Assembly: GCA_031289315.1 (NCBI GenBank)
Contig: JAITPR010000016.1
Location: 72,751-136,750, forward strand
DNA length: 64,000 nucleotides
Direction of reading: 5' to 3'
Source of the DNA: Clostridiaceae bacterium
Lineage (GTDB): Bacteria; Bacillota; Clostridia; Christensenellales; CAG-917
The stretch's first letter is position 1; each line of letters begins with the position of its first letter. The position numbers and the translations under genes are program-made. The notes beneath the pieces were generated by a model that made no database searches, had not been told where the DNA came from, and saw only the letters and a list, made by a program, of their open reading frames with translations. Shown here in pieces: positions 16,249-63,586 of this stretch.

Positions 16249-16300
16249 GGGTGTGAACAGTTCGCGGTGACACATTCAAATAAACACGGATTTTTATTGA
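16249..16300. repeat. Decayed copy of the GTGGACA-palindrome repeat
   Basis: GTGTGAACAGTTCGCGGTGAC matches the left arm. The ..CACGGATT.. right arm is eroded. Confidence 0.5.
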
Positions 16301-16358
16301 GCGGTCGGGGGCGCGTCCTTCAAAACGTATTAATCAAATCCGTAAACGGCGGTCTTGT

Positions 16359-16628
16359 ATGCGTTTAGGTTCTATTGTTTTTTCAAAGGCGGGACGCGAC
16401 CGCGAAGGTTGTTTCGCGGTTGTCGCGGTCGTTGACGAGAATTACGTCAGGATTGCGGACGGCGAAAAGCACCGCTTAGAAAATGCCAAGCTGAAAAAGC
16501 TTAAGCATTTAAAGGATTCCGGCAGCGTGTTGGTGAAGATAGCCGAAAAGCTTGAACAAGGCGCCGTGGTATTCAATCAAGAAATTCGTTCCGCGTTGCG
16601 CGCTCATCAAGCGGGTGCTGCGGAATAA
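16359..16628 (+). CDS. KOW-domain RNA-binding protein (the small conserved gene between map and infA in Clostridia)
   Basis: GSIVFSKAGRDREGCFAVV KOW-like motif; conserved position. Confidence 0.75.
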   Translation: MRLGSIVFSKAGRDREGCFAVVAVVDENYVRIADGEKHRLENAKLKKLKHLKDSGSVLVKIAEKLEQGAVVFNQEIRSALRAHQAGAAE

Positions 16629-16732
16629 GCGGATTATCGCCCTAAGCGGCGCCTACGGCAAAGCGAAGGGTTCCCGTAAAAGGGCAATGCAATACGGACA
16701 ATGTTGAAAAACAACACTGAAACGGGGGTTTT

Positions 16733-16954
16733 ATGTCTAAGGAAGATGTAATTGAGGCTGAAGGCAAGGTAATAGAAGTGTTGCCTAACGCGATATTCAA
16801 GGTGCAGCTCGGGAACGGTCACATCGTAACCGCTTATCTGTCGGGCAAGCTGAGAATGAATTATATCAAGATATTGGAGGGAGATAAGGTTACGATTGAG
16901 CTTTCTCCCTACGACCTAACCAAAGGACGTATTATCTGGCGCAGTAAGAACTAA
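16733..16954 (+). CDS. infA: Translation initiation factor IF-1
   Basis: [40 protein letters not shown]. Confidence 0.97.
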
Positions 16955-17101
16955 AACCGCCTAAAAATGCCTTTAAACCGGCAAAAAAAGGGTTCGGTTC
17001 ACATTTAATCGCGCGGCTATCCGCGGCGGCTAAGAAACAAAAAATCCATTAAGAGCGTCGGCGGCAAGCCTAAGACGCGGCAAATAAAGGAGATAACTAC
17101 T

Positions 17102-17218
17102 ATGAAAGTAAGACCTTCCGTCAAGCCCATGTGCGATAAATGCAAGGTAATCAAGCGCAACGGCAGAGTTATGGTGATCTGCGCTAAGAACAAAAACCAC
17201 AAGCAAAGACAAGGCTAA
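17102..17218 (+). CDS. rpmJ: 50S ribosomal protein L36 (bL36, zinc form); absent from the ORF track because it is under 60 aa
   Basis: Hand translation gives [46 protein letters not shown] at 17088-17093. Confidence 0.93.
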
Positions 17219-17401
17219 TTCGCTTAAGGAGCGGCTGGTTTCCCGTTTCCTCCGTCAGGGTAGAGGGCTTTATGTTTAATTACATAACGCGCTCGCCCGT
17301 CACAAACAATCGTTTGAGCGGTACCGAAAAGAGAAACAAATTCCGTAAGCGTTGATATATATAGACAAAATTAAACTTTTTACTCATTTTGGAGGTAACA
17401 G

Positions 17402-17776
17402 ATGGCAAGAATTGCTGGTGTGGATTTACCCCGCGAAAAGCGTGTGGAAATCGGCTTAACCTACATCTACGGAATAGGTCGTCCTACCGCAAATAAAATA
17501 TTGGCGGATACGGGCATCAGTCCCGACATTCGCGTTAAGGACCTTACCGAACAACAGGTAAGCCTTATCAGAGAATACATCGAGAAAAACTTACGCGTAG
17601 AGGGCGACCTCAAACGTGAAGTGCTTCTTGATATTAAGCGACTCATGGAAATCGGTTGCTACCGCGGCGTAAGACACAGAAAGGGTCTACCCGTACGCGG
17701 TCAAAGCACCAAACAAAACGCCCGCACAAGGAAAGGCCCTAAGCGTACCGTAGGTCGCAAGAAGGCTAAGAAGTAA
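17402..17776 (+). CDS. rpsM: 30S ribosomal protein S13 (uS13)
   Basis: [26 protein letters not shown]. Confidence 0.97.
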
Positions 17777-17790
17777 GGGGAGGCACGATT

Positions 17791-18183
17791 ATGGCAGTCG
17801 CTAAGAAAGTTATAAGAAGAAGAAAAGATATTCGCCGTATTGAAAAGGGACAGGCGCACATACACGCGTCCTTTAACAATACCATAGTAACCGTAACCGA
17901 TATGGAAGGTAATACGATTTCGTGGTGTAGCGGCGGTAAGCTCAACTACAAGGGCTCAAGAAAAAGCACTCCGTTTGCGGCGCAAGTAATTGCCGAAAAC
18001 GCCGCCAAAGGGGCGACCGATAACGGAATGAGAAGCGTAGAGGTCTACGTTAAGGGTGCGGGCGCCGGGCGTGAGTCCGCAATCCGCGGTCTTTCAAACG
18101 CCGGGTTGGAGGTCACGTTGATACGCGACGTTTCTCCGATACCACACAACGGTTGCAGACCCCCGAAGCGCAGAAGGTTATAG
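17791..18183 (+). CDS. rpsK: 30S ribosomal protein S11 (uS11)
   Basis: [19 protein letters not shown]...WCSGG. Confidence 0.97.
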
Positions 18184-18196
18184 GAGGTAACGGAAT

Positions 18197-20479: not shown

Positions 20480-20558
20480 CTATTTGTCTAACAGCCAGTC
20501 AAGTACGTTTACCTTGCGTATACCGCCGAAGTCTGTTTCGGGGGTTTCGTCAAGAGTA
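20480..20558 (-). pseudogene. Relic 3' end (last ~25 codons plus stop) of a paralogue of the DUF4143 ATPase gene
   Basis: About 88% identical to 22875-22955. The rest of the CDS is missing and the fragment is joined directly to a copy of the ATPase upstream region. Confidence 0.8.
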
Positions 20559-20562
20559 AATA

Positions 20563-20591
20563 AGTATATATCAGAAGCAAGGACAAGTCAA
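20563..20591 (-). promoter_or_regulatory. Orphan promoter TTGACT-17-TATACT retained in the ATPase relic locus
   Basis: The reverse complement reads TTGACT tgtccttgcttctgata TATACT. Same hexamers and spacing as the promoter at 24180-24208. Confidence 0.55.
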
Positions 20592-20599
20592 ATAAGAAC

Positions 20600-20698
20600 G
20601 GGAACATAATCCACAAATCCTATGAAATAAAGAAGTTTATGGAACGTAATCCACAAACTTTTGAAAACGCTTGAGTTTGTGGAATGCAACCCATAAGG
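20600..20698 (-). repeat. Three iteron-like ~20-bp direct repeats at a 40-bp period (relic copy)
   Basis: GGGAACATAATCCACAAAT at 20600, TGGAACGTAATCCACAAACT at 20640, TGGAATGCAACCCATAAG at 20680. Confidence 0.75.
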
Positions 20699-22594: not shown

Positions 22595-22713
22595 ATCTCG
22601 CGGTCTGCTTATGCTGACAATGCCGTGGTAGTTCGCGGTGAAGCATGATAATCTTGAACCGCGTCCGCTTGAAAGAAACAAATAGGTTCAAAGACACGAA
22701 AGGGTTACATTGT

Positions 22714-22874
22714 CACTAATAGAATTAAAAAACGCGGTTGATGGGCAAGGAACTTGCGTCAACCGCGTTTTTAAAGTAATCAGTGTCAAGCTTCAAGCTT
22801 GCGCGTTTTTGGGATTCTTTCTTGCCGGCAAGAAAGAACGGAAACTCACACTTGTGGTTTGTGCGGCGTGACGC
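22714..22874. repeat. Mosaic multi-hairpin repeat, copy C (inverted relative to A/B; includes terminator hairpin 22727-22775)
   Basis: Modules H2, H3 (CAAGCTTcAAGCTTG) and H1 (ATTCTTTCTTGccggCAAGAAAGAAC). The first ~95 bp are nearly identical to 24407-24502. Confidence 0.85.
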
Positions 22875-24074
22875 TTATTTATCTAACAGCCAATCAAGTA
22901 CGTTTAGCTTGCGTATGCCGCCGAAGTTTGTTTCGGGGGTATCGTCGAGGGTAAGGAGCAGTTTAGGGTAGTGGTCTGTTATTGCTTTGAGGGAAGCGAG
23001 TTCACGTTCAAGCGTGGCTTGGTTGCGGACTGTCGCCGCCACTTGAAAATAGGCTGTACCTTGTGAGGTAACGGCGACGAAATCGACTTCTTTTGAATCG
23101 ACCTTACCTACGTAAACGTCATAGCCCCTACGGAGGAGTTCTAAGTAAACGATATTTTCGAGGATACGCCCCTCATCGTAGTTTTGCCGTCCTAACAGCG
23201 TAAAACGAAGCCCTATATCGGTGGCGTAATATTTTTCCAGAGTTTTTAAATATTGTTTGCCTTTTATATCGTAGCGTTTTGCTTGATAGATAATAAAGCT
23301 GTTTGTAAAGGCGGAAAGGTATTTTTCAACGGTTTTTACGTCGATTTTTCTTCCGTTTGAAGTCATGGTATCCGCGATACTTTTAGTGGAAAGTAGGTTT
23401 GCAATGTTATCATATAGAAAGCGGAGGACGCTTTCAAGTTGCATTAAATCGTTGAATTTATTGTGTTGCATTATATCTTTCAAAACAACGGTAGAATAAA
23501 TCCCACGCAAATAGTCGTCCGTATTTTTTTTGTCGCCGGCAAGTTCCGTGACGTAAGGAAAAGAACTTCTTTCGATATATTCGCGGTATTTGCTGGAAAC
23601 GGACTTATTATCTTTGGTTGCAGTCGAATATTCGGCAAATGAGAGCGGGAGCATTTCTATTGTGATGTAGCGTCCGGAAAGGAGGGTGGCAAGCTCGCCG
23701 GACAAGAAAAAGGCATTTGAACCGGTGATATAAATGTCCAGTTCTTTTCGCAAAAACAGGCTATCCACTACTTGTTCAAAGTCCGCAACATTCTGAATTT
23801 CATCGAAAAACACGTAGCTTTTTTTGCCGGGTTGAATCAGCGAAATAACATATTCGTGCAATACGTGCTTGTCGCGGAGGTGAGTGTTAGACATGTTCTC
23901 GAAGTCTACGGCGATTATTTGCGCCGAATCTACGCCGCAACTTTCCGTGAGATATTCTTTAAAAAGTTCTAAGAGGGAGGATTTGCCGCAACGGCGTATC
24001 CCCGTAATTACTTTTATGACATGCTTATCCTTCCACGCGATAAGCCGATCTAAATATTCTTTACGTTGAATCAT
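22875..24074 (-). CDS. AAA+ ATPase with a C-terminal DUF4143 (PD-(D/E)XK-like) domain, COG1373 type
   Basis: Walker A GIRRCGKSSLL. MIQRKEYL start at 24074 with GGAGG SD; the longer ORF-track start at 24131 runs into the repeat and was rejected. Confidence 0.85.
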   Translation of the reverse strand: MIQRKEYLDRLIAWKDKHVIKVITGIRRCGKSSLLELFKEYLTESCGVDSAQIIAVDFENMSNTHLRDKHVLHEYVISLIQPGKKSYVFFDEIQNVADFEQVVDSLFLRKELDIYITGSNAFFLSGELATLLSGRYITIEMLPLSFAEYSTATKDNKSVSSKYREYIERSSFPYVTELAGDKKNTDDYLRGIYSTVVLKDIMQHNKFNDLMQLESVLRFLYDNIANLLSTKSIADTMTSNGRKIDVKTVEKYLSAFTNSFIIYQAKRYDIKGKQYLKTLEKYYATDIGLRFTLLGRQNYDEGRILENIVYLELLRRGYDVYVGKVDSKEVDFVAVTSQGTAYFQVAATVRNQATLERELASLKAITDHYPKLLLTLDDTPETNFGGIRKLNVLDWLLDK

Positions 24075-24094: not shown

Positions 24095-24165
24095 GGATGT
24101 GGACAATCCGCTGTGACGATTTGCTAGGCAAGAAAATATTTTGTCACTGCGAACTGTTTCCACCC
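24095..24165. repeat. GTGGACA-palindrome repeat, full copy in the 5' UTR of the ATPase gene
   Basis: GTGGACAATCCGCTGTGACGA..AAGAAAATATTTTGTCACTGCGAACTGTTTCCACCC. The arms pair. Its end lies 20 nt from the ATG. Confidence 0.9.
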
Positions 24166-24179
24166 ATGATTACCGTTTG

Positions 24180-24208
24180 AGTATACATCGGAAATAAGTA
24201 TAAGTCAA
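24180..24208 (-). promoter_or_regulatory. ATPase promoter TTGACT-17-TATACT
   Basis: The reverse complement reads TTGACT tatacttatttccgatg TATACT. It lies between the iterons and the palindrome repeat. Confidence 0.6.
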
Positions 24209-24216
24209 ATAAAAAT

Positions 24217-24316
24217 GGGAACGCAATCCAAAAACTCTGTAAAATAAGATAGTTTTTGGAACGCAATCCAAAAACTTTCGAAATCAACGAAGTTTTGGGA
24301 ATGTAATCCAAAAACT
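24217..24316 (-). repeat. Three iteron-like 20-bp direct repeats at an exact 40-bp period, two with internal 10-bp inverted repeats
   Basis: GGGAACGCAATCCAAAAACT at 24217, TGGAACGCAATCCAAAAACT at 24257, GGGAATGTAATCCAAAAACT at 24297. AGTTTTTGGA-n6-TCCAAAAACT at 24251-24276. Confidence 0.85.
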
Positions 24317-24406
24317 TTTAAAATGATTTTAAGAAAGTTTTTTCGTTTCGGACAAGAAAAAGGGAAGTATAGGAGTAACTAAAAAGTCACCGGGTTGATG
24401 TTTGGT

Positions 24407-24622
24407 ACTAATCAATTAAAAAACGCGGTTGATGGGCAAGGAACTTGCGGCAACCGCGTTTTTAAAGTAATCAGTGTCAAGCTTCAAGCTTGCGTGTTTT
24501 TGGTTCTTTTGCCGCATAGCAAAAGAACAAGGGCGTTCTTTTGCCGCGTAGCGAAAGAACAGAGGCTCAAGCTTTAAGCTTGCAGTTTTTCAGTTCCTTT
24601 TGGGCGTCAGAAGGAACGAGAG
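24407..24622. repeat. Mosaic multi-hairpin repeat, copy D (H2 terminator 24417-24465, H3, three H1-type hairpins)
   Basis: Direct repeat of copy C across the ATPase locus. H1 hairpins at 24497-24524, 24529-24557 and 24589-24616. Confidence 0.85.
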
Positions 24623-29285: not shown

Positions 29286-29356
29286 GGGTGTGTACAATCC
29301 TCTGTGACGACTTACTGGCTAAGAAAATATTTTGTCACCGCGAACTGTCCCCACCC
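29286..29356. repeat. GTGGACA-palindrome repeat, full copy
   Basis: GTGTGTACAATCCTCTGTGACGACTTACTGGCTAAGAAAATATTTTGTCACCGCGAACTGTCCCCACCC. Confidence 0.9.
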
Positions 29357-29394
29357 ATTCCCCCCGAGAAAAGCAAGTGTACAAGGATGTTGTT

Positions 29395-35057: not shown

Positions 35058-35111
35058 GGGTATGTACAATTCGGTGATAAAAGATTTCGTTACCACGGGG
35101 TGTCCACACCC
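35058..35111. repeat. GTGGACA-palindrome repeat, short-loop copy
   Basis: GGGTATGTACAATTCGGTGATAAAAGATTTCGTTACCACGGGGTGTCCACACCC. Ends 17 nt before the ATG at 35129. Confidence 0.75.
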
Positions 35112-35896: not shown

Positions 35897-35917
35897 GTCA
35901 CGCGAATTGCCCCCCTT
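35897..35917. repeat. Half copy (one arm) of the GTGGACA-palindrome repeat
   Basis: GTCACGCGAATTGCCCCCC matches the GTCACCGCGAA(C/T)TGTCC arm. It lies between two convergent stop codons. Confidence 0.5.
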
Positions 35918-36379: not shown

Positions 36380-36446
36380 GGTGTGTATAATCCGATGTGA
36401 CGACTTGCATGCTAAGAAAATATTTTGTCACCGGAATTGCCCATCC
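36380..36446. repeat. GTGGACA-palindrome repeat, full copy in the rplI 5' UTR
   Basis: GGTGTGTATAATCCGATGTGACGACTTGCATGCTAAGAAAATATTTTGTCACCGGAATTGCCCATCC. Ends 19 nt from the ATG. Confidence 0.9.
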
Positions 36447-36499
36447 ATTTAATTAATACCGCCCGCCAACCATGTTGCGGCGCACGGATATTCCATATA

Positions 36500-37479: not shown

Positions 37480-37486
37480 CTAACGG

Positions 37487-41745: not shown

Positions 41746-42368
41746 TAATTTTGAAGTATCGAAAGACCGGAAGCGCACGCTATATTTCGCATATAGACGT
41801 CTTGCGCGGTATGGGGCGGATTTTGCGGCGCGCGGGGCTGGAACCCACCTTTTCGCAGGGCTTCAATCCTCATATGAACCTATATTTTTCGCCGCCCATA
41901 GCGCTGGGGCTGGGAAGCGTCGCGGAATACATGGCGGTCGACATACCGGAGGTTAGCCCGGAGGATTTTCTTAAGAAATATAACGCGGCGGCTCCCGACG
42001 GTTTAAAGGGTATTTCCGCAGAATATGCGGAAAAAAATCCGAATTTTGCGGCAAACGTCAAGGCGTTCGTCTACCGTACGGAGCTGAAAGGGAGTGCGGA
42101 AGCGCTTGCCAAAATTGAGAAAATCAAGGACGTTTATAATATAACGTACACACAAAAGGGCGAAACCGTAACAAAGGATGTGGGCGCGCTTATCCGTAAA
42201 ATAGAAAGAAGAGGCGATTCGGAATTCTTTTTTACGCTTGCCGCCGGTGCGGAGGTTTTACGTCCCGACAGACTACTCAAGCAGTTGGAGGTTGATTTCG
42301 GCATAGAATACAGCCTTCCCGAGGTTACAAAAACCGAACAACTTTTTGGGGTGGACAATCCGCGTTGA
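41742..42368 (+). CDS. Radical-SAM-associated DUF2344 (TIGR03936-like) protein
   Basis: ARYISHIDVLRGMGRILRRAGL..FSQGFNPH; 4-nt overlap with the upstream radical SAM gene. Confidence 0.8.
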   Translation: MIILKYRKTGSARYISHIDVLRGMGRILRRAGLEPTFSQGFNPHMNLYFSPPIALGLGSVAEYMAVDIPEVSPEDFLKKYNAAAPDGLKGISAEYAEKNPNFAANVKAFVYRTELKGSAEALAKIEKIKDVYNITYTQKGETVTKDVGALIRKIERRGDSEFFFTLAAGAEVLRPDRLLKQLEVDFGIEYSLPEVTKTEQLFGVDNPR

Positions 42369-42520
42369 CGACTTGCTGGCTAAGAAAATCTTTTCGGCTC
42401 TTTTTAGTCTAAAACCGTCTGAAATGCTCGTCCGGTAGCGGTGCTACGACTGTGCTTTTAGGTAATTTATCCTTACAAATAGCCGAAAAAATATTTTATC
42501 ACCGCAAATTGTCCACATCC
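42348..42520. repeat. GTGGACA-palindrome repeat, long form with a ~85-bp palindrome-ended insert in the loop
   Basis: Left arm 42348-42397 (overlaps the last codons of the CDS). The insert is bounded by CTTTTCGGCT/AGCCGAAAAA. Right arm 42483-42520. Confidence 0.85.
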
Positions 42521-48656: not shown

Positions 48657-48725
48657 GGTGTGGACAGTTCGCGATGATAAAATATTTTCTTAACCGGCAA
48701 GTCATCAGCGCGGATTATTCACATC
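48657..48725. repeat. GTGGACA-palindrome repeat, full copy (opposite orientation on the + strand)
   Basis: GTGGACAGTTCGCGATGAT(48660-48678) pairs with ATCAGCGCGGATTATTCAC(48704-48722). Ends 23 nt before the ATG at 48749. Confidence 0.9.
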
Positions 48726-48748
48726 TAATTTTAGGGAGGAATGCGGCG

Positions 48749-49821: not shown

Positions 49822-49885
49822 AAATAAAACGGAAAACAGCTTAGCAAAAGGGCTTTTTCCGTAAAACTGACAAAAAGAGGGCGCG

Positions 49886-49972
49886 ATGTTTTTCTTCGGG
49901 ATTATAATTAGCGGAATAATTATTACCATAGCGATTATTAAGATTGCTAAATTCCGCCGTTCCCCGAGATAA
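49886..49972 (+). CDS. Candidate 28-aa hydrophobic peptide MFFFGIIISGIIITIAIIKIAKFRRSPR (small membrane protein or type I toxin-like)
   Basis: AGAGGG 5 nt upstream of the ATG. One TM helix plus a basic tail. It has its own promoter and terminator. Absent from the ORF track (under 60 aa). Confidence 0.45.
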   Translation: MFFFGIIISGIIITIAIIKIAKFRRSPR

Positions 49973-50000
49973 GACGCCGCACTACTTAAAAAGGCATTTG

Positions 50001-50032
50001 AACCCCCGGGCCGTACGGCTTCGGGGGTTTTA
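50001..50032 (+). terminator. Intrinsic terminator after the small peptide ORF
   Basis: AACCCCCG ggccgtacggct CGGGGGTT plus TTTT. Confidence 0.6.
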
Positions 50033-50040
50033 AAATTTAA

Positions 50041-50110
50041 GGGTATGGACAATTCGCGGCGACAAAAAAATTTATTGCCTGGCAAGTCGTCACATCGGAT
50101 TGCCCGCACC
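50041..50110. repeat. GTGGACA-palindrome repeat, full copy
   Basis: GGGTATGGACAATTCGCGGCGACAAAAAAATTTATTGCCTGGCAAGTCGTCACATCGGATTGCCCGCACC. Ends 23 nt before the ATG at 50134. Confidence 0.9.
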
Positions 50111-50133
50111 AAAATTTAACAAGGAGTTTTTTT

Positions 50134-50688
50134 ATGACTGAACAACTTAGAGAAATCGGCAGGCGTCTTGCGGAATTGCGCGACGCGGCGGAGATGACGG
50201 CGGAGGCGTTCTGCAAGGAAGCCGACGTGAGTTTAAGCGAACTTGCCGCATACGAGGAGGGCAAGAAGGATTTTTCTTTTTCCTTTCTTTATAACGCCGC
50301 GCATATTTTGGGCGTGGACGTAATGGATTTGATGAGCGGTGACACTCCGCGGCTTTCGTCTTGGTGCGTGGTTAAAAAGGGCAAGGGTTACACGGTAAAC
50401 CGCCGTTCCTCCTACAAATATTCGCATTTGGCATTCACCTTCCGCGATAAGAAAGCCGAACCGTTTTTGGTTACGGTGGAGCCGAAGACGGCGGCGGAGG
50501 TTGCGCTTCATTCGCACGACGGACAGGAGTTCGACTGGATTGTTTCCGGGCGCATACTCTTTAAAATTGCCGACGTGTCTTACGAACTGGAAGCCGGCGA
50601 CAGCGTATATTTCAACTCTGCGCTTCCTCACGCGATGTCCGCATTAGACGGCAAGTCCGCGCAATTTATTGCCGTAGTCATGAAATAG
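50134..50688 (+). CDS. XRE-family HTH regulator with a C-terminal cupin domain
   Basis: N-terminal HTH_3 (LRDAAEMTAEAFCKEADVSLSELAAYEEG) and cupin (HSHDGQEFDWIVSGR...GDSVYFNSALPH). Confidence 0.88.
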   Translation: MTEQLREIGRRLAELRDAAEMTAEAFCKEADVSLSELAAYEEGKKDFSFSFLYNAAHILGVDVMDLMSGDTPRLSSWCVVKKGKGYTVNRRSSYKYSHLAFTFRDKKAEPFLVTVEPKTAAEVALHSHDGQEFDWIVSGRILFKIADVSYELEAGDSVYFNSALPHAMSALDGKSAQFIAVVMK

Positions 50689-50700
50689 GAGTAAGCTTTT

Positions 50701-52383
50701 ATGCCGCTATACGAATTATATACGGGCAAAAATCGCGACGATTTTGCCACACTAGAAGATTTACAAAAAAATTACAAACTCACGGTTCCGGACGATTTCA
50801 ACTTTGCGTTCGATTGCCTTGACCGTTTAGCCGCCGAAAAGCCGGATGCGCTTGCGTTGCTTTGGATTTCCAACGACAACGAGGAAAAGCGGTTCACCTA
50901 CGGCGATATACGCAAGCTTAGCCTAAAAGCCGCCAATTTCTTCAAAAAACACGGCATCGGCAAAGGTGATATGGTTATGCTTACCATGAGCCGCGACTGG
51001 CGGTTTTGGCCGGTACTCATGGGGCTTCACCGCATGGGCGCGACGGCGGTTCCCGCTTCCTACTTGCTCACCGCGAAGGATATAGTATACCGCATGAACG
51101 CCGCGTCTATAAAAATGCTTCTCACAACTCCGCGTTTCGGCGTTACTCAAGCCATGGAGGAGGCGCTTTCACAGTGTCCTACCGTTAAAAAGCTAGCCGT
51201 GTTTGGCGGCAAGCTGCCCGCGTCAAATCTGTGGATAGATTTCGATAAGGAGTTGGAAGCCGCGCCGGAAACGCCGTTTAAACGTTGCACAATCAAGTCT
51301 GATACCATGCTTATGGCATTTTCGTCCGGCACAAGCGGATACCCCAAAATGGTTCAGCACGACTACACGTATCCGTTGGGACACATTCCGACCGGCTGTT
51401 TTTGGCAACGTTGTATCGACGGCGGTCTGCACCTCACCATATCCGACACCGGTTGGCTTAAAAGTCTTTGGGGCAAGATGTACAGCCAATGGCTTGCCGG
51501 CAGCGCGGTTTTTTGCTACGACTTCGACAAGTTCTCCGCGTCCGACATCCTTGAAAAAATCGAAAAATATAAGGTGACTACCTTCTGCGCCCCCCCGACG
51601 ATGTACCGCTATATGATTAAAGAGAACCTCAAAAAATATGATTTCTCTTCACTCAAGCACTGCTGCGCCGCCGGCGAAGCCCTTAACCCCGAAATCTATA
51701 AGGTGTGGTTTGCCGGTACCGGGCTTAAAATATTTGAGGGCTTCGGACAAACCGAAACCACCCTGTCCTGTTGGACCGGCTATCCGTGGATGCAACCGCG
51801 CTTAGGCTCTATGGGGCTTCCCGCCCCCGGCTACCGCATGATAGTCTGCGACGAAACCGGCGTCGAACTGGGCGCCGGCGTCACCGGAGAAATTTGTATC
51901 CGTACCGACGACGCGGGCGGCGGTAAGCCCTACGGGCTGTTCAAGGGCTACTACCGCGACGCGGAGATGACCTCCCAAATTTGGCACGACGGCATATATC
52001 ATACCGGCGATACCGCCTATAAGGACGAGATGGGCTTCCTCTGGTACGTGGGGCGTATGGACGACGTGATTAAATCCTCCGGCTACCGCATAGGTCCATT
52101 TGAGGTCGAGTCCGCACTCATGGAACACCCCGCCGTCACCGAATGTGCCGTTACCGGGCTGCCGGACCCCGAACGCGGTTTCGTCGTCAAAGCCACCGTG
52201 GTTCTCTCCACCGGTTATACGCCCTCCGACGCGCTCACTAAAGAGCTGCAAAACCATGTCAAAAAGGTGACCGCTCCCTATAAATACCCCCGAGTAATCG
52301 AGTATGTCGACGCGCTTCCCAAAACCGTTAACGGCAAAATCCGCCGCGTAGAAATCCGTAACCGCGACATCGAAAAGAAATAG
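50701..52383 (+). CDS. AMP-forming acyl-CoA synthetase (medium-chain/AcsM-like)
   Basis: AMP-binding motif FSSGTSGYPK, plus YHTGD and SSGYRIGPFEVE. Confidence 0.9.
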   Translation: MPLYELYTGKNRDDFATLEDLQKNYKLTVPDDFNFAFDCLDRLAAEKPDALALLWISNDNEEKRFTYGDIRKLSLKAANFFKKHGIGKGDMVMLTMSRDWRFWPVLMGLHRMGATAVPASYLLTAKDIVYRMNAASIKMLLTTPRFGVTQAMEEALSQCPTVKKLAVFGGKLPASNLWIDFDKELEAAPETPFKRCTIKSDTMLMAFSSGTSGYPKMVQHDYTYPLGHIPTGCFWQRCIDGGLHLTISDTGWLKSLWGKMYSQWLAGSAVFCYDFDKFSASDILEKIEKYKVTTFCAPPTMYRYMIKENLKKYDFSSLKHCCAAGEALNPEIYKVWFAGTGLKIFEGFGQTETTLSCWTGYPWMQPRLGSMGLPAPGYRMIVCDETGVELGAGVTGEICIRTDDAGGGKPYGLFKGYYRDAEMTSQIWHDGIYHTGDTAYKDEMGFLWYVGRMDDVIKSSGYRIGPFEVESALMEHPAVTECAVTGLPDPERGFVVKATVVLSTGYTPSDALTKELQNHVKKVTAPYKYPRVIEYVDALPKTVNGKIRRVEIRNRDIEKK

Positions 52384-52384: not shown

Positions 52385-52560
52385 GGAATAAGGCATAGTT
52401 CTTTTTGCCCGCGCAAAAAGAACCCAAAGTTGGTGCGCCTTGCGAGGTTCGCAAGGCGCACTGCGCAAGCTTGAAGTTTGACCCTGATTACTTGAAAAAC
52501 GCGGTTGACGCAGGATTATATCCTTAGCGTCAACCGCGTTTTTAAATTCATTAGTGTTAA
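52385..52560. repeat. Mosaic multi-hairpin repeat, copy F (H1, an extra 13-bp hairpin, H3, H2 terminator 52494-52544)
   Basis: GTTCTTTTTGcccgcgCAAAAAGAAC; GTGCGCCTTGCGAggtTCGCAAGGCGCAC; CAAGCTTgAAGTTTG; AAAAACGCGGTTGACGC..GCGTCAACCGCGTTTTT. Confidence 0.85.
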
Positions 52561-52658
52561 CCCTCTCACTTACCGTTCTTTATGTTCGTTATTTCTTCTC
52601 AATAGGAGCGGACAAAACAGATTTTTTTGGTTTTTGCGGTAAATTATAAAATTAATGC

Positions 52659-55143: not shown

Positions 55144-55212
55144 GGGCGTGGACAATACGAGATGACGACTTGCGAGGCAAGAAAATATTTTACATAGCGA
55201 ACTGTCCGCACC
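55144..55212. repeat. GTGGACA-palindrome repeat, full copy between tyrA and aroB
   Basis: GGGCGTGGACAATACGAGATGACGACTTGCGAGGCAAGAAAATATTTTACATAGCGAACTGTCCGCACC. Ends 22 nt before the ATG at 55235. Confidence 0.9.
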
Positions 55213-55234: not shown

Positions 55235-56290
55235 ATGAATAACGAAATAATTACCGTAAGGGTAAACGCTTCCACAAGCTACGACGTGACGATAGGGCGC
55301 GGCATTTTGCAATATGTCGGAAAGTACATTGCGGATTTGGGCAATATCGACAAGGTGGCGATTGTCACCGACGACCTTGTTGATGCGCTGTATTCCGACA
55401 CAGTTGAGAAGTCTTTACGCGAATGCGGTCTTAAAACCGTGAAAAGCGTGTTTAAAAACGGCGAAAAGAGTAAAACTTTGTCTACGGTCGGCAAAATTAC
55501 CGATGACCTTGCTAAGGCGGAGTTGACCCGTTCGGATTTAGTGCTTGCCTTAGGCGGCGGAGTAGTCGGCGATATGGCGGGCTTTGCCGCCGGCATATAT
55601 ATGAGGGGAATAAGATACGCGCAGGTACCCACAACCCTGCTTGCGATTATAGACTCGTCCGTGGGCGGTAAGACCGGCGTCAACCTTCGTACCGGCAAAA
55701 ATTTAGCGGGGCTTTTCAATCAGCCCGAATTGGTGTTCGCGGATACGGACACGCTTAAGACGCTTCCCGAGGAGCAGATGCTCAACGGTATCGGCGAGGG
55801 TATAAAGTACGCCGTTTTGGACGGCGGAGAGCTTTTCGACATCATGGAGGCGGGGCTTGACGACGGTAACACGGTTCGTTTTGCGGAGCTTTGCGTAAGT
55901 TATAAGCGCGATGTGGTGGAGGCGGACGAGCGCGAAAGCGGCATAAGAAGGCTGTTAAATTTAGGGCATACGGTCGGACACGCCATTGAAAAGCTTAGCC
56001 GCTATACCGTTTCTCACGGGTTTGCCGTCGCGTCCGGTTTAAAGGTAATATCGGAGGCGTGCGTAAGGCGCGGACTTCTTGATGCGGGTGAGTGCGCGCG
56101 CATAACGGCGCTACTCGACAAGTACGGATTGGGAGCGGACGCCGGATATCCCGTGAGCGCTTTGATTCGCGAAATGCCACACGACAAAAAACGCGTCGGC
56201 GCTAAAATAAGTCTAGTCATAGTAAACGCCATAGGAAAGTGTGCGTATATTTCCGTCGAAACCGCGCGTTTAAAGGAGTTTTTTTCATGA
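55235..56290 (+). CDS. aroB: 3-dehydroquinate synthase
   Basis: GGGVVGDMAGFAA, VPTTLLA.IDSSVGGKTG and HTVGHAIE motifs. Confidence 0.95.
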   Translation: MNNEIITVRVNASTSYDVTIGRGILQYVGKYIADLGNIDKVAIVTDDLVDALYSDTVEKSLRECGLKTVKSVFKNGEKSKTLSTVGKITDDLAKAELTRSDLVLALGGGVVGDMAGFAAGIYMRGIRYAQVPTTLLAIIDSSVGGKTGVNLRTGKNLAGLFNQPELVFADTDTLKTLPEEQMLNGIGEGIKYAVLDGGELFDIMEAGLDDGNTVRFAELCVSYKRDVVEADERESGIRRLLNLGHTVGHAIEKLSRYTVSHGFAVASGLKVISEACVRRGLLDAGECARITALLDKYGLGADAGYPVSALIREMPHDKKRVGAKISLVIVNAIGKCAYISVETARLKEFFS

Positions 56291-57900
56291 ACGTGACGAT
56301 TAAGCCGGGGCGTGTTTGCGGCGCGGTTGAGGTTATAACCTCAAAGTCATTCGCTCACCGCGCCTTGCTTTGTGCCGCGCTTGCTTCTCTTAACGGCGGC
56401 GAAACCGCCTTAAAGGACGTCAACGACAGCGACGACGTGAACGCCACTGTAGGCGCGCTTGCCGCGTTGGGTTTTATCTTCAGGCGTGAGGGCGGTACGG
56501 TTACCTTTCAAAAAACCGACAAGGCAAGCTTAAATCAAAATGCCGTTATAGATTGCCGTGAGAGCGGTTCGACGTTGCGTTTCATACTACCCGTGGCGGC
56601 GGCGCTCGGGGTGAATGCGGAGATTACCGGCACCAAAAAATTGTTGAGCCGTCCGCTAGACGACCTTATCGGCGCGTTGACCTCTCACGGGATTACCGTG
56701 TTCCGAAACGGAGAACGCATAAATATTTCCGGCAAGCTTACGGGCGGTGTGTTTAATATCGCGGGCAACGTCAGTTCGCAGTTTGTAACCGGGCTTATGC
56801 TTGCCGCGCCGCTACTTGTAGGCGGAGCCGAAATAAGAATTTACGAGGGACTTGTGTCGGAGGACTACGTTTGGCTTACCGCTAACATCATGGGAAAATT
56901 CGGCATTTTATTTAAGTCTAACGCCGGTAGCTTCTTTAAAACGGACGGCGGCAATGCGGCGGAAAATAAGGACGACGACGGTTTATTTAAGACGGACGGC
57001 GGCAACGCAGCGGAAAATCAAACCGGCGGAAGGAGTTTTTTTTCACTTGCAGTCGAAGCCGTGAAAGAAAATTTTAACACGTATCGCCGCTCGTTAGGCG
57101 GCAAGCTGACGGTTGAGGCGGACTGGTCGAACGCGGCGTTTCCGCTTGCGGCGGGCGCCGTCGCGGGGGATAAGGGCGGTGTTACCGTTTCGAACGCGGC
57201 GCTTTCCACTCAAGGCGACATACGCATATTGGGTATTCTAGAGAGGTCGGGCGCGGCGGTGGACTTCCACGGCATCGGCGAGTGGTATTTAAAGCTTGTC
57301 GGGTCGTTGGAGCTGTCGGAGAGTTATTTAGGCGACGATAGAGAAAATATTGGGGCGAAAGCCATTGCCAAACGATTCAATGAGTCGCGGCACCGTGCGA
57401 CGGTCAACGAGGTTTCCGAGGGCAAGGTAGCGGGTGGCGGATTGAGCAACGATAGCGGTTTATATCCCGTAACCGCCGCGCCGAAAAAGCTTAAGGCGTT
57501 CAAGGTTGATGCTGAGAACATTCCCGACATGGTACCCATACTTTCCGTGCTTGCGGCAAACGCAAGGGGCAAGAGCGTGATAACCAACGTGAACCGCTTG
57601 TGCGAAAAGGAAAGCAACAGGCTGGCGGCAATCATGGAAAATCTTACGACTATGGGCGGCAAGATAAGCTATGACGAAAGCGTTCCCGGCGGCGCCTTGT
57701 ATATAAAGGGTGGCAAGCTTAAGGGAGCGGTGTTGAAATCCCACAACGACCACCGTATGGTGATGTCGGCGGCGGTAGCCGCGCTTACGGCAAATGGCGA
57801 AACGACGATTTTAGACGCCGAAGCGGTAAATAAATCGTATCCCGGATTTTTCGACATGATGAAATCGCTGGGGGCAAGCATCACGGTAAGCGGCGATTGA
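56287..57900 (+). CDS. aroA: 3-phosphoshikimate 1-carboxyvinyltransferase (EPSP synthase) with two lineage-specific insertions
   Basis: SKSFAHRALLCAAL, RESGSTLRF, LCEKESNRL and HNDHRM motifs. ATGA start/stop overlap with aroB. 537 aa, versus the ~430 aa I expect for this enzyme. Confidence 0.92.
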   Translation: MNVTIKPGRVCGAVEVITSKSFAHRALLCAALASLNGGETALKDVNDSDDVNATVGALAALGFIFRREGGTVTFQKTDKASLNQNAVIDCRESGSTLRFILPVAAALGVNAEITGTKKLLSRPLDDLIGALTSHGITVFRNGERINISGKLTGGVFNIAGNVSSQFVTGLMLAAPLLVGGAEIRIYEGLVSEDYVWLTANIMGKFGILFKSNAGSFFKTDGGNAAENKDDDGLFKTDGGNAAENQTGGRSFFSLAVEAVKENFNTYRRSLGGKLTVEADWSNAAFPLAAGAVAGDKGGVTVSNAALSTQGDIRILGILERSGAAVDFHGIGEWYLKLVGSLELSESYLGDDRENIGAKAIAKRFNESRHRATVNEVSEGKVAGGGLSNDSGLYPVTAAPKKLKAFKVDAENIPDMVPILSVLAANARGKSVITNVNRLCEKESNRLAAIMENLTTMGGKISYDESVPGGALYIKGGKLKGAVLKSHNDHRMVMSAAVAALTANGETTILDAEAVNKSYPGFFDMMKSLGASITVSGD

Positions 57901-59165: not shown

Positions 59166-59190
59166 ATTCTAAATATAACTAAAGAAAAAA

Positions 59191-59232
59191 CGGATTGTCC
59201 GTACCCAAAGAAACAAGGGGATGTCCGCACCC
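59191..59232. repeat. Two arm-end fragments of the GTGGACA-palindrome repeat
   Basis: CGGATTGTCCGTACCC (59191) and GGGATGTCCGCACCC (59217). The second ends 18 nt before the ATG at 59251. Confidence 0.6.
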
Positions 59233-59250
59233 AACAAGGAGATGATAAAT

Positions 59251-60419: not shown

Positions 60420-61715
60420 ATGAACCTTGCCTTAATCGGCGAAAGGCTGTCGCACAGCTATTCCGCTTATATTCACAACGCGCTTGGAAGCGGGTATCAA
60501 CTCGTACAGCTTCCGCGCGCTACCGTGGCGGAATTTGTGAAGACCAACGGTTTGGACGGCTACAACGTCACCATACCCTATAAGGAGGAGGTCATTCCTC
60601 ATCTTGACTGGGTGTCGGGCGGCGCGTCCGCAATAGGCGCGGTGAACACAGTTACTAAGTGCGGCGGCAAAAGCTTCGGTCACAACACCGACCTCGTTGG
60701 TATGTGGGCGGCGTTTTTACGGCGCGGCATTTCCTTAAATGGCAAAACCGTCATGATTTTGGGCGGCGGCGGCACCTCGAAGACGGCGCAAGCCTTGAGT
60801 GCCGGTGCGGCGCATGTTTACGTTGTAGGCAGAAATGGCGCGATAAACTATGATAATTATACCAATTATGCCGCCGATACCGATATTTTGATAAATACCA
60901 CGCCGGTCGGTATGTATCCGGACATGGATGCCGCTCCGCTTTCCTTAAAGCCTTTCACGAGGTTGAAATTTGTTTTCGACGCCATTTACAACCCGAAAGA
61001 AACGGAGTTGCTGTACGAAGCGCACGTCTTAGGCATACCTGTGGAGAACGGGCTTTTTATGCTTGCGGCGCAAGCGAAGTTCGCGTACGATTTATTCGGG
61101 GCTTATTACAACGCGGACGCGCGCGGCTTACCCGCCCCTAAGGACGGTTCTAGAAGACTGCTAACCGCGCCGGACGGCTGTACGAAAAGCGGCGTTGCGG
61201 AGATAGAACGGCTTTATAATTTATTGCGTTTAAAGACCTGCAACATAGTGCTTATAGGCATGCCGGGTTGCGGCAAAAGCTCTAAGGGTCGCGTCATAGC
61301 CGATACCTTGAGCTATGAGTTCGTCGATACTGACGATTTGATTGTCCGCGCGGCGGGAAAAAGTATTCCGGAAATATTTGCGGACGGCGGCGAAGCCGTG
61401 TTCCGCGATTACGAGGAAGCCGCCGTGCGCGAAGCCGCGGCAAGGAAAAACGCCGTGATAGCCGTGGGCGGCGGGGCGGTATTGCGCGGAGAAAACCGCA
61501 AGCGTTTAAGGCGTTGCGGCACGGTGGTTTACGTCAAGCGCGATTTAAACGAGCTTGCCTTTGACGGGCGTCCTCTTTCTAAGGATGCGGCGGCGGTAGA
61601 AAAGATGTACGGCGTTCGTAAGCCGTTATACGAAGGCACTGCGGACGTCACGGCGGAAGGTCGCGGAACCGTGGAAGAATGCGCGGCGGATATATTGAGG
61701 CTTTTGGGTCGGTAA
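60420..61715 (+). CDS. aroE/aroK: Shikimate dehydrogenase fused to shikimate kinase
   Basis: AroE motifs GYNVTIPYK, AVNTV and GHNTD, then P-loop GMPGCGKSS and DTDD of AroK. Confidence 0.9.
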   Translation: MNLALIGERLSHSYSAYIHNALGSGYQLVQLPRATVAEFVKTNGLDGYNVTIPYKEEVIPHLDWVSGGASAIGAVNTVTKCGGKSFGHNTDLVGMWAAFLRRGISLNGKTVMILGGGGTSKTAQALSAGAAHVYVVGRNGAINYDNYTNYAADTDILINTTPVGMYPDMDAAPLSLKPFTRLKFVFDAIYNPKETELLYEAHVLGIPVENGLFMLAAQAKFAYDLFGAYYNADARGLPAPKDGSRRLLTAPDGCTKSGVAEIERLYNLLRLKTCNIVLIGMPGCGKSSKGRVIADTLSYEFVDTDDLIVRAAGKSIPEIFADGGEAVFRDYEEAAVREAAARKNAVIAVGGGAVLRGENRKRLRRCGTVVYVKRDLNELAFDGRPLSKDAAAVEKMYGVRKPLYEGTADVTAEGRGTVEECAADILRLLGR

Positions 61716-61790
61716 AAAACGCTAAAAAAACGCTAAAAAAACGGCAAAAAAAACGGCAAAAAACCATAAAAAACGCCTTTAAATACCGCA
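61713..61790 (+). repeat. Phased A-tract array (A6-8 every 10-12 bp) starting at the aroE/aroK stop codon
   Basis: TAAAAAACGC TAAAAAAACGC TAAAAAAACGGC AAAAAAAACGGC AAAAAACCAT AAAAAACGCC. Confidence 0.85.
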
Positions 61791-61956
61791 AGAAAAGAGA
61801 GTGCCGCCGCGATTACCGTAGGCGAAAAATCCATAAAAACCGCGTTTAAACGACGGCGGGGTGTATCGGCGAAGCCGCGGCGGATTTTGATGAAATACGT
61901 AATTAGGATTTTAGTCTTAAAGCGCGGAAAATAAAAAAACAAAACGGACTTAAAAT

Positions 61957-62736
61957 ATGTTAGAAATTCTAAGAGATAAACGGTTGCTTATATTCGACCT
62001 TGACGGCACGGTCGCCGATACGGAGTCTCTCCATTGGGAGGCTTATAATATTTTACTGGAAAAGCAAGGCACACATCTTGACGAAGCGGATATTTTGCGG
62101 TACATCGGACGTCCGGAGCGCGAAATATACGCGGACATAGAGCGCGACAAGGGCATAAAAATAAATGTCGACGAGTTTTTAACGGCGCGTACGGCGCTCT
62201 ATTTAAGGCTTACGGAGGAACGCGGACTGCAACCGTACAAATACTTCAAGGAACTGCTTGCATTGAACGGGAAGGGCGTTTTACCGCCCGCGATTCTTTT
62301 ATCCGCGCAAATGCCGTACGTGGCGGACGCCGTGATAAAAAGGTTGGGCGCGGACGGGTTTTTCCCCGACGACCTGCGTTTTTTTGCTCATAACGGCAAA
62401 ATTACCAAAAGAGGCGTGCTTGCCGACATAAACGCGTACATCGGTTTCGGCGAAGACGGTAAGGTATTTTCTAAAAATCCGTATACGCGGTTCGATGCCG
62501 TTTCCATTTCATTTAGGGAAGCTTTAAAGGGTGCGCACGCTTCCTCCGCATTGTCGGGTTCGGACGGAATTAAAAATTTCGCGAATGAGATTAAAAATTC
62601 CGAAGCCGTTCTTTTTGAGGATGCCCCTTCGGTGCTTGAATTTGCCGTCGCAAACGGGTTTTACACGGTGGGCGTAGAACATTCCTTGAATGTAGGAAAA
62701 ATTAAAGCCGACGTGAAATTGACATATATACTTTAG
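61957..62736 (+). CDS. HAD-superfamily hydrolase
   Basis: Motif I FDLDGTVADTE. Confidence 0.8.
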   Translation: MLEILRDKRLLIFDLDGTVADTESLHWEAYNILLEKQGTHLDEADILRYIGRPEREIYADIERDKGIKINVDEFLTARTALYLRLTEERGLQPYKYFKELLALNGKGVLPPAILLSAQMPYVADAVIKRLGADGFFPDDLRFFAHNGKITKRGVLADINAYIGFGEDGKVFSKNPYTRFDAVSISFREALKGAHASSALSGSDGIKNFANEIKNSEAVLFEDAPSVLEFAVANGFYTVGVEHSLNVGKIKADVKLTYIL

Positions 62737-62767
62737 GGAGAATGTCTTATCGGGGTACCATATTTTC

Positions 62768-62833
62768 GGGCGTGGACAATTTTATCCTTAGAAATAGCTT
62801 GAAAATATTTATCACCGCGAATTGTCCCTACCC
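62768..62833. repeat. GTGGACA-palindrome repeat, internally deleted derivative of the long form
   Basis: GTGGACAAT is joined directly to TTTATCCTTAGAAATAGCTTGAAAATATTTATCACCGCGAATTGTCCCTACCC, which aligns with 42467-42520. Confidence 0.8.
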
Positions 62834-62837
62834 ACGG

Positions 62838-62866
62838 TTGAAATTGTTGAAAATATGTGATATTAT
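62838..62866 (+). promoter_or_regulatory. Promoter TTGAAA-17-TATTAT
   Basis: TTGAAA 62838-62843, TATTAT 62861-62866. Confidence 0.55.
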
Positions 62867-62918
62867 ATATCAAACGGAGCAAGGTTGAAACTATTGTCCG
62901 CGAAAGGAGAACACTAAA

Positions 62919-63569
62919 ATGAATACTGTTAGAACAAGAGCGGTGGAGATAGGATCGATTCCCGCGTTAGCCTATAAACAGAAACTTTCTACGGGCGGTG
63001 CCGGAATAAAAATTCACAGATTGGATTGCGATGCCGTAGCCGTATTTACTTTGGATAAGCGTGGCGGGCAAGCGACTGCTTACGGTAAGTTCGATTCGGA
63101 ATTGTTTCCGGAAGCTTCCGTTCAAGAGGCGATTGAAAGCACTATAGGACTTCCTTACTCCACCTATACGCGTATTGTCTTAAAAATTGCCGCGCAATCC
63201 GATGCGGAAGCTCAAGACGAAGGAAATGCCGAAGAAATAATCGACATGCTTTCAAGTAAGGAGTACAACGCGATTATCGGCGAATACGTAAAGGAAAACG
63301 GCAAGCTGGATTATACCCGTTTGAACAAGGAATTCATTCAGTTTGCAAGTAAGAGCAAGACGGTAGCCGGACTTGCGGCAAAATCCGCCGGAGTTGACGA
63401 GATATTGCGGTTCGTCGTCAAAAACCGTGCCGCGTATCTGGCAAAGGAAAAGGAATTACTTAGCGACGCGCAAACGACGGCATTAATCGAAATTCTAGAC
63501 GATATAAATCCGAGAAGCGCATTAAAAGAGCTTTCGTCGCACATAAAGAAGATGCTTGCGAAAAAATAA
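62919..63569 (+). CDS. Hypothetical protein (216 aa)
   Basis: Long ORF with an AAAGGAG SD; no recognisable motif. Confidence 0.6.
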   Translation: MNTVRTRAVEIGSIPALAYKQKLSTGGAGIKIHRLDCDAVAVFTLDKRGGQATAYGKFDSELFPEASVQEAIESTIGLPYSTYTRIVLKIAAQSDAEAQDEGNAEEIIDMLSSKEYNAIIGEYVKENGKLDYTRLNKEFIQFASKSKTVAGLAAKSAGVDEILRFVVKNRAAYLAKEKELLSDAQTTALIEILDDINPRSALKELSSHIKKMLAKK

Positions 63570-63570
63570 A

Positions 63571-63586
63571 CGGATTGTCCACGCCC
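63571..63586. repeat. Half copy of the GTGGACA-palindrome repeat right after a stop codon
   Basis: CGGATTGTCCACGCCC; compare GCGGATTATCGCCC at 16629 after the stop of the KOW gene. Confidence 0.55.

Follow-up and report, generated by a model that had tools for sequence, protein, structure and literature searches.

What is the ~70-bp imperfect palindrome that recurs along a 64-kb stretch of DNA from a Clostridiaceae bacterium (GenBank assembly GCA_031289315.1, contig JAITPR010000016.1, positions 72,751 to 136,750; from here: the window), and why do so many of its copies lie directly in front of Shine-Dalgarno (SD) sequences? A first-pass annotation of the window had noticed the repeat and offered three possible roles, namely a 5′ stabiliser or processing hairpin, a protein-binding site, or a mobile element with an insertion preference. 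[quoted passage not shown] New MITE families turn up routinely, and as a classification this one is ordinary. The one interesting point left is the placement statistic, which is genuine.

Copies and anatomy of the repeat

The motif GTGGACA occurs 16 times in the 64-kb window, compared with 3.0 expected occurrences, and the arm pattern GCGRAYTGTCCNCACC yields 23 matches at up to three mismatches, compared with 4.0 expected, adding the single arms at 59190 and 63570. The dispersed family is real: a repeat finder recovered its direct and inverted members where the first-pass annotation had placed them, as did nhmmer with a profile built from six copies and run on the window. In total, there are six full copies of ~69 nt (nhmmer E = 1e-19 to 1e-23), one long form of 173 nt and one variant, besides two copies that have decayed and four single arms (Table 1). 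Copy size is 52-70 nt, the long form excepted, and no open reading frame (ORF) was found inside any copy. The copies occur on both strands, all at 16-64 kb of the window, which amounts to 10 copies and four single arms in 47 kb, or ~1 copy per 5 kb; the first 16 kb, with their tightly packed ribosomal-protein operons, contain none. Of the single-arm fragments proposed earlier, those at 35897, 59190, 59216 and 63570 were upheld by their alignment scores, while the one at 16629 was not, as 2-8% of random windows score equally. The local alignment score of 12 at 35897 is reached by 0.6% of random windows, with the real arms included among those, and the arm at 63570 is 78% identical to the stretch 59181-59216.

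A full copy consists of two imperfect terminal inverted repeats (TIRs) of ~22 bp around an AT-rich core of ~25 bp. The TIR consensus is 5′-GGGTGTGGACAATCCGC.GTGAC ... GTCACCGCGAACTGTCC.CACC-3′, and the core contains a small CTTGC...GCAAG hairpin followed by the palindrome AAAATATTTT. That the arms pair was borne out, with standard pairs in 85% of the cells when 22 arm positions were compared across seven copies. Two positions had been described as consistently G-T. One of them stood (columns 14/58, C.A in six of seven copies, which would be G.U in the opposite sense), the other (columns 12/60) holds in four of seven copies. An asymmetry of this kind is expected of the non-identical left and right ends of an insertion sequence (IS).

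Pairwise identity between the full copies ranges from 69 to 85% with a mean of 77%, and their relationship is star-like, no pair being markedly closer. Judged by this divergence, the pattern fits a single old burst that would have been followed by independent decay. In the long form, a main-type left half is linked by an 87-nt internal segment, unique in the window, to a right half like the variant at 62768. The latter had been listed among the full or near-full copies; it belongs to a variant subfamily and is not a decayed copy, having its own core, AATTTTATCCTTAGAAATAGCTTGAAAATATTT, which matches the long form at 42466-42481. MITE families typically comprise deletion forms, both long and short, as well as truncated copies and single ends (PMC10969869). 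With ~70 bp, i.e. two transposase-binding ends and a 25-bp core, the element is near the minimum for a MITE and offers a compact case for the cis requirements of a transposase. Recognising it also avoids false gene calls, since the ORFs 29332-30477 and 48617-49708 seem to start within copies.

Target-site duplications

Fixed-length direct duplications are the footprint of staggered-cut (DDE-type) transposition. With the copies aligned in one orientation, 9-nt direct repeats were found to adjoin the two ends, the key feature of the family and one that the first-pass annotation had overlooked. Over nine copies, the flanking 9-mers agree at 9, 8, 8, 7, 7, 6, 6, 4 and 3 of the nine positions. For random genomic positions with the same spacing, the probability of at least eight matches is 0.0043, and a permutation in which flanks were swapped between copies, controlling for AT-rich composition, gave p = 0.00055. 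From the mean copy identity of 77%, about two mismatches per target-site duplication (TSD) are predicted, and the observed median is two. A palindromic RNA element, an operator or a REP would not make 9-bp duplications of fixed length, which argues against all three.

We applied the MITE criteria of PMC10969869 and PMC3049150. The family is small (below ~500 bp) and non-coding, is bounded by TIRs, has a TSD of fixed length, is present as dispersed copies in both orientations together with remnants, and is missing from orthologous sites of a relative. Among the roles suggested at first, that of a MITE-like element with an insertion preference is thus the one that TSDs, TIRs, empty sites and an insertion at a stop codon bear out.

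Empty sites in the closest relative

The source species is not among the GTDB representatives and its lineage is isolated: the closest relative shares 72% identity in RNase G, the next one 46%, and in AroA the same relative reaches 54% and all others 41% or less. This relative is represented by two contigs, L056 (rplI-ROK-HTH-radical SAM-DUF2344-rng) and L058 (aro operon), of 15.4 kb in total. The regions of the window that are syntenic to them carry three copies and one pair of single arms, and no copy of the element was found in the 15.4 kb of the relative, so that four orthologous sites (rplI, tyrA-aroB, pheA and DUF2344) are empty there.

At rplI, the promoter CTTGCG-N17-TGGTATATT is conserved in the window genome and the relative. 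The leader reads TTAAATAATAAGGAG-N7-ATG without interruption in the relative and TTAATTAAAT-element-ATAAATAAAGGAG-N7-ATG in the window. The tyrA-aroB junction measures 7 nt in the relative and would measure ~20 nt in the window once the element and one TSD are removed. In front of pheA, the SD-proximal sequence ACAAGGAGAT.A.AAATATGATTGA is conserved in the relative, which lacks both single arms. The DUF2344 ORF of the window now ends in ...EQLFGVDNPR*; removal of the element and one TSD restores ...EQLF*, and the ORF of the relative, without element, ends in ...LEQII*. The long form thus landed on the DUF2344 stop codon and made the protein longer, the element now encoding its C-terminus. As the relative is distant (54-72% amino-acid identity), its empty sites show a lineage-specific gain and not recent mobility.

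Relatives of the AMP-binding gene (loci L053-L055) were rejected as empty-site evidence, as these loci have no element but are not syntenic. The cupin-HTH and AMP-binding gene pair (50134-52383) is 80-83% identical to genes in metagenome-assembled genomes labelled Endomicrobium, Oscillospiraceae and Treponema. Set against the values for RNase G (72%, then 46%), the pair looks like a horizontally shared cassette, which makes L053-L055 uninformative on empty sites.

Transcription and folding of the copies

The first-pass annotation had proposed that the copies at rplI and the ATPase gene are transcribed as part of the 5′ untranslated region (UTR), and promoters were located upstream of both, which bears this out; for the ATPase gene it is TTGACT-17-TATACT at 24208-24180 on the minus strand, just upstream of the 24095 copy. 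Folding energies of the copies lie between -11.6 and -24.1 kcal/mol, and the lowest z-score is -4.3. In the transcribed sense, the copies at 29286 (z = +0.09) and rplI (-11.6 kcal/mol, z = -0.6) fold no better than shuffles.

The arms were also said to change together. We found just one C-G to T-A change (the ATGAT/ATCAG case of the 48657 copy) and one G-C to A-T change (55144 copy), which is chance level. In the covariation test, 84.8% of cells are paired, compared with 84.4% after shuffling, and 203 of 500 shuffles reached or exceeded the observed value; a change on both sides is seen in 3 pairs, compared with 2.0 expected (156 of 500 shuffles). Because pairing equals that of the shuffles, substitutions strike both arms independently, and pairing was inherited from the inverted repeats of the founder and not kept by selection. 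A search of the 64 kb against Rfam gave no match at the gathering threshold, and nothing over two of the copies at E <= 1 (48500-50200).

Three further candidates were rejected. The internal promoter that had been suggested has weak support, and the idea of a mobile promoter was dropped, since the hexamers are weak (7-9 of 12 positions) and no better toward genes than away from them. An intrinsic terminator would require a T-run, which is absent after the main stem; just a 5-bp inner stem precedes AAAATATTTT. An integron attC site does not agree with the housekeeping neighbours, the varying orientation and the presence of TSDs.

Placement next to Shine-Dalgarno sites

Non-random placement in front of start codons had been claimed as well, and the distances of 20, 17, 19, 23, 23, 22 and 38 nt were reproduced. 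Six of the 10 copies end 17-23 nt before the start codon they face (test window 15-25 nt), where 3.7% of random intergenic positions and 3.4% of AT-rich 9-mers do so (binomial p = 5e-7 and 3e-7, respectively). The proximal single arm at pheA, 17 nt from the ATG, is a seventh case. The start codons of rplI, aroB and pheA are secure because they are aligned with those of the relative. The range of distances is narrow because the gene-proximal TSD abuts the SD sequence: the gap to GGAG or GAGG is 0 nt in three copies (GTAATCACG/GAGGT, ATAAATAAA/GGAGA and TAATTTTAG/GGAGG) and 2 and 5 nt in two others (AAAATTTAA/caAGGAG at 50041 and AATCTTAGA/tagatGGAG at 55144). Relative to the downstream gene, the two orientations occur 5:4. 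In the reverse-consensus orientation, five of five copies are SD-proximal, compared with one of four in the other (Fisher p~0.05-0.09), and both pheA single arms represent the same element end.

The explanation we prefer is insertion into the AT-rich tract before the SD sequence, nearly the sole harmless spot for 70 bp in compact spacers. Much of the bias has this simple cause. Before the insertion, just ~15 nt separated the -10 box of the ATPase gene from the SD sequence, and the whole tyrA-aroB spacer measured ~20 nt. At 50041, a GC-rich terminator hairpin and the SD sequence enclose a single AT tract, which is the target, and what remains of the rplI leader further upstream is GC-rich. The AT tract before the SD sequence would thus be the kind of target preferred and, at the same time, almost the only one where an insertion does no harm.

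A course of events can be proposed on this basis. A transposase encoded elsewhere in the genome, or lost since, would have bound both ends. As the TSDs show, the element entered AT-rich targets at cuts staggered by 9 bp, and 9 bp were duplicated. Amplification took place after the split from the only sampled relative, and subsequent decay to ~77% pairwise identity left the truncated copies and single arms. The survivors cluster with one end exactly one TSD (9 nt) from the SD sequence; the AT tract there would be the preferred target and would spare promoter, terminator and ribosome-binding site (RBS). Copies in 5′ UTRs and intercistronic regions would be co-transcribed and could form hairpins of -12 to -24 kcal/mol, and any effects on mRNA processing or stability would be by-products and not a selected function. 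At the density observed, the element may have remodelled 5′ UTRs and operon junctions in many places, among them rplI and the aro operon.

Several points weigh against a MITE that settled passively. Two full-size copies, at 29286 (1/9) and 62768 (4/9), have no recognisable TSD. An autonomous element or transposase was not found in the ~66 kb of genome covered, and the empty-site comparison rests on a distant relative (54-72% protein identity) and not on a sister strain. The placement is much narrower than the uniform or AT-rich intergenic null (p~3-5e-7), which a purely passive account does not obviously predict, and the same holds for the orientation skew of 5/5 versus 1/4. Moreover, every statistic rests on ~10 copies.

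Alternative explanations

A first alternative is a MITE domesticated as a mobile 5′-UTR module. Its transposase would recognise the junction of AT tract and SD sequence in a preferred orientation, or selection would keep the SD-proximal copies of one orientation, and the copies would act through an outward promoter or through a 5′ hairpin by which the mRNA is protected or processed. Besides the distances to start codons, the orientation skew, the TSDs abutting GGAG or GAGG and the shared end of both pheA arms, this account can point to lower folding energies of the reverse-consensus sense in four of the six full copies (e.g. -23.2 versus -19.8 and -19.9 versus -12.1 kcal/mol; the copies at 36380 and 50041 are exceptions) and to TGGACA-N16-TATTTT in that sense of the 48657 copy. 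Correia elements, mostly found upstream of genes and with promoters, provide a precedent (PMC10969869). Nevertheless, pairing shows no covariation or upkeep, the transcribed sense folds poorly at rplI and 29286, and the hexamers are weak, vary between copies and are no better toward genes. In addition, rplI and the ATPase gene have their own promoters, the association with orientation does not reach significance with so few copies, and the relative expresses the same genes without the element. We therefore regard directed or selected placement as unlikely. If true, the element would be a mobile 5′-UTR cassette, placing a hairpin and perhaps also a weak promoter exactly one TSD upstream of the RBSs of housekeeping genes (rplI, aroB and pheA).

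If the repeat had evolved not as mobile DNA but as a structured cis-regulatory RNA, or as a hairpin that stabilises or processes the 5′ end, this would account for stable hairpins (-12 to -24 kcal/mol, z down to -4.3), for the 5′-UTR location beside the SD sequence and for an A.C/G.U asymmetry that favours one sense. This reading is largely refuted and very improbable. The 9-bp direct duplications, both orientations relative to genes (5:4), the missing covariation and Rfam match, the poor folding of the transcribed sense and the absence of the element upstream of rplI, aroB and pheA in the relative all contradict it, as do functionally unrelated neighbours and copies on a stop codon or just past stop codons. 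The 5′ stabiliser or processing hairpin of the first-pass annotation is thus not retained as a primary function.

Its protein-binding site fares no better as a primary function. A paired operator of a global DNA-binding protein, with two GGACAAT...ATTGTCC half-sites, would agree with palindromic arms, single half-sites and the closeness to promoters and start codons. In contrast, TSDs are present, the arms decay freely (69-85% identity between copies) and without covariation, the orientation is 5:4, copies lie downstream of mapped promoters, within an operon and on a stop codon, the orthologous genes of the relative lack the element, and the genes around the copies have no common functional theme; we consider this reading very improbable as well.

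REPs make no TSD and depend on RAYT. A REP/REPIN-type element mobilised by an IS200/IS605-like RAYT through recognition of a single-stranded hairpin matches the short imperfect palindrome, its high density in intergenic DNA and the strand identity given by the consistent arm asymmetry, but is very improbable, too, in view of the 9-bp TSDs, the lack of hairpin covariation, the absence of a Y1 transposase from the window and a location 5′ of genes instead of the usual 3′ or convergent one.

Mobilising enzyme and wider searches

For the MITE family that we favour, the parent element was sought in the window and beyond. Pfam searches of ~30 window genes revealed no transposase, Y1/RAYT enzymes included. 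The window was found at 100% identity in Logan contigs of SRR14710897, reached via RpoA and via the last gene of the window; they add ~2 kb and no new copies. Exact-protein look-ups (SecY, P0001, first window gene) returned no record. Relatives of the consensus were absent from 72,556 plasmids and 50,697 phages, and hits of the core pattern in genome_contigs (4), metagenome_contigs (47) and viral_contigs (2) are chance matches to the 25-nt core alone, so that none of these collections contains the family.

The element ends offer a lead. IS1 makes TSDs of 8-9 bp, clostridial IS6-like clades exist, and IS26-type elements move by cointegrate formation; we know of no MITE family of IS26-type origin. 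The consensus end is GGGTGTG, and individual left ends, including GGATGTG, GGGTGTG and GGGCGTG, conform to GGnnnTG, the terminus common to most IS6/IS26 members and IS1, with a TSD of 8 bp in IS6/IS26 (PMC6807381). A 9-bp TSD, perfect (9/9) in one copy, fits an IS1-like or IS5/IS903-like parent (e.g. ISAba12, PMC6382973) better than IS6/IS26, which we take only as a lead.

Table 1. Repeat copies, single arms and a second palindromic repeat in the window. TSDs are given as the two flanking 9-mers with the number of matching positions; E values are from nhmmer
Feature	Coordinates	Strand	E value	Context	TSD
Truncated copy (one arm and part of core); 1 mismatch to arm pattern; same sequence in Logan contig L005	16250..16282	-	2.9e-4 (model positions 43-70)	20 nt past map stop codon	
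Full copy, 70 nt	24095..24164	+	2.6e-22	5′ UTR of AAA_14/DUF4143 ATPase gene (minus strand, ATG 24074); copy end 20 nt from start codon	24086-24094 CGTGATTAC / 24165-24173 CATGATTAC, 8/9
Full copy, 70 nt	29286..29355	+	9.8e-23	5 nt past stop of 86-aa ORF; about 38-39 nt upstream of ATG 29395 (membrane protein in first-pass annotation)	
Degenerate copy, 52 nt, core mostly deleted; arm pattern finds both arms with 3 mismatches each	35059..35110	-	1e-4	17 nt before methyltransferase ATG 35129	6/9
Probable single arm GTCACGCGAATTGCCCCCC	35897..35915	+		Between convergent methyltransferase and rplI genes	
Full copy, 68 nt	36380..36447	+	7e-20	rplI 5′ UTR (rplI on minus strand, ATG 36360); copy end 19 nt from start codon	TTTATTTAT / TTTAATTAA, 7/9
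Long form, 173 nt; nhmmer matches 42348-42394 and 42481-42517 (to 42520)	42348..42520	+		At DUF2344 stop codon	CAACTTTTT / AAACTTCTT, 7/9
Full copy, 69 nt	48657..48725	-	2.5e-21	Between GH3 gene and alpha/beta hydrolase gene; 23 nt before ATG 48749 of the latter	6/9; gene-side flank TAATTTTAG abuts GGAGG
Full copy, 70 nt	50041..50110	-	2.4e-21	Between terminator-like hairpin and cupin-HTH SD; 23 nt before cupin-HTH ATG 50134	50032-50040 AAAATTTAA / 50111-50119 AAAATTTAA, 9/9
Full copy, 69 nt	55144..55212	+	1.8e-19	tyrA-aroB junction, aromatic amino-acid operon; 22 nt before aroB ATG 55235	AAGCTTAGA / AATCTTAGA, 8/9
Two tandem single arms ACGGATTGTCCGTACCC + GGGGATGTCCGCACCC; 2 mismatches to arm pattern; scores of 12 and 11 in local alignment	59190..59233	+		End of second (59216) arm 17 nt before pheA ATG 59251	
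Variant-subfamily copy, 65 nt	62768..62832	+	1.5e-5 (right half)	Upstream of promoter of gene 62919	
Single arm ACGGATTGTCCACGCCC; pattern match with 2 mismatches; score 14	63570..63586	+		Directly past stop of gene 62919-63569	
Second palindromic repeat	1130-1290	+			
Second palindromic repeat	1958-2118	+			
Second palindromic repeat	22700-22850	-			
Second palindromic repeat	24380-24540	-			
Second palindromic repeat	52440-52590	+			

Other features of the window

A second, unrelated palindromic repeat is present in five copies of ~110-130 nt with three hairpins each (Table 1), one of which resembles a bidirectional terminator (AAAAACGCGGTTGA...TCAACCGCGTTTTT). Two of its copies flank the AAA_14/DUF4143 ATPase gene. 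The stretches 1138-1288 and 1966-2116 form a 151-nt repeat of 98% identity with a spacing of 828 bp, pointing to a recent tandem duplication of ~0.8 kb. At 20.5 kb, sequences like the ATPase gene's 3′ end (90% identity) and upstream region (75%) lie next to each other (20481-20696 versus 22876-22954 and 24180-24313), and this stretch looks like the remnant of a second ATPase module whose gene body would have been deleted.

AroA (EPSP synthase, 56287-57900) has 537 aa, whereas its counterpart in the closest relative has 435 aa and other homologs have ~405-435 aa; its Pfam domain matches in three stretches, which indicates an insertion of ~100 aa. The segment 49793-50035, just upstream of the cupin-HTH and acetyl-CoA-synthetase-like genes, contains a strong sigma-70-like promoter, TTGACA-17-CATAAT, and, ~180 nt later, a GC-rich hairpin that has a T-run. 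A leader, an attenuator or a small RNA may have gone unrecognised here; the segment matched no Rfam family (best match His_leader, E = 0.78). Between the rplI promoter region and the ROK gene, ~1.35 kb (36450-37800) are devoid of ORFs of at least 100 aa and of Rfam matches, and the corresponding gap in the relative (L056) is ~660 nt.

Phased A-tracts with a period of 10-12 nt (e.g. TAAAAAACGCTAAAAAAACGCTAAAAAAACGG) occur in the intergenic stretches 2931-2994 and 61713-61798 and may form intrinsically bent DNA. Tandem units were noted in three places: three of 69 nt upstream of the H+-pyrophosphatase gene (63743-63913), two of 69 nt within the radical-SAM gene (40501-40638) and two of 56 nt at 44314-44425.

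Comparison with known elements

MITEAba12 of Acinetobacter, which is mobilised by ISAba12, resembles the family described here in being non-coding and in its imperfect GG-initiated TIRs, 9-bp TSDs and AT-rich targets, and in both families TSDs can be recognised in only part of the copies, 40% in MITEAba12 (PMC6382973). Further similarities are a hairpin that is about equally stable in the two senses (about -24 to -27 kcal/mol in MITEAba12), putative outward sigma-70-like hexamers and fusion to neighbouring ORFs (PMC6382973). Nevertheless, MITEAba12 measures 113 bp with 16-bp TIRs (GGCTTTGTTGCACAAA), whereas the present element has ~70 bp and ~22-bp TIRs (GGGTGTGGACAATCCGC.GTGAC), and comparison of GGCTTTGTTGCACAAA with the consensus GGGTGTGGACAATCCG leaves only G1, G2, T4, T6 and G7 in common (Table 2 of PMC6382973). 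It also belongs to another host phylum, has a known parent IS and has no reported SD-proximal bias.

The Correia elements of Neisseria (CREE/NEMIS) duplicate the dinucleotide TA and have defined promoters, an IHF site and sites at which RNase III processes the transcript. The present family has a 9-bp TSD and ~22-bp arms, the ~70-bp element is about half the size, and IHF, RNase III and promoter features were not detected in it. Its TIR sequence differs from those of MITEAba12 and Correia, and it belongs to neither family. Common to both are abundance, small size, bounding TIRs, a position upstream of genes, co-transcription and hairpins in the mRNA (PMC10969869, PMC3049150). Correia elements are 100-155 bp long with 26-bp TIRs (PMC3049150); they mostly lie immediately upstream of genes, carry promoters (PMC10969869) and can alter expression.

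BOX, RUP and SPRITE of Streptococcus pneumoniae and REP/BIME and ERIC of enterobacteria are likewise dispersed intergenic palindromic repeats that are often transcribed and sometimes occur nested or as fragments. The first-pass annotation had set the repeat apart from REP/BIME, BOX, RUP, ERIC and Correia, and rightly so, as the sequence is unrelated. BOX, RUP and SPRITE are over-represented between convergent genes, away from 5′ ends (Table 1 of PMC3049150). The tight bias of the present family toward SD sites is the opposite of that of BOX, RUP, SPRITE and REP and, with the full genome, would make it a clean natural experiment on target choice versus purifying selection in intergenic DNA.

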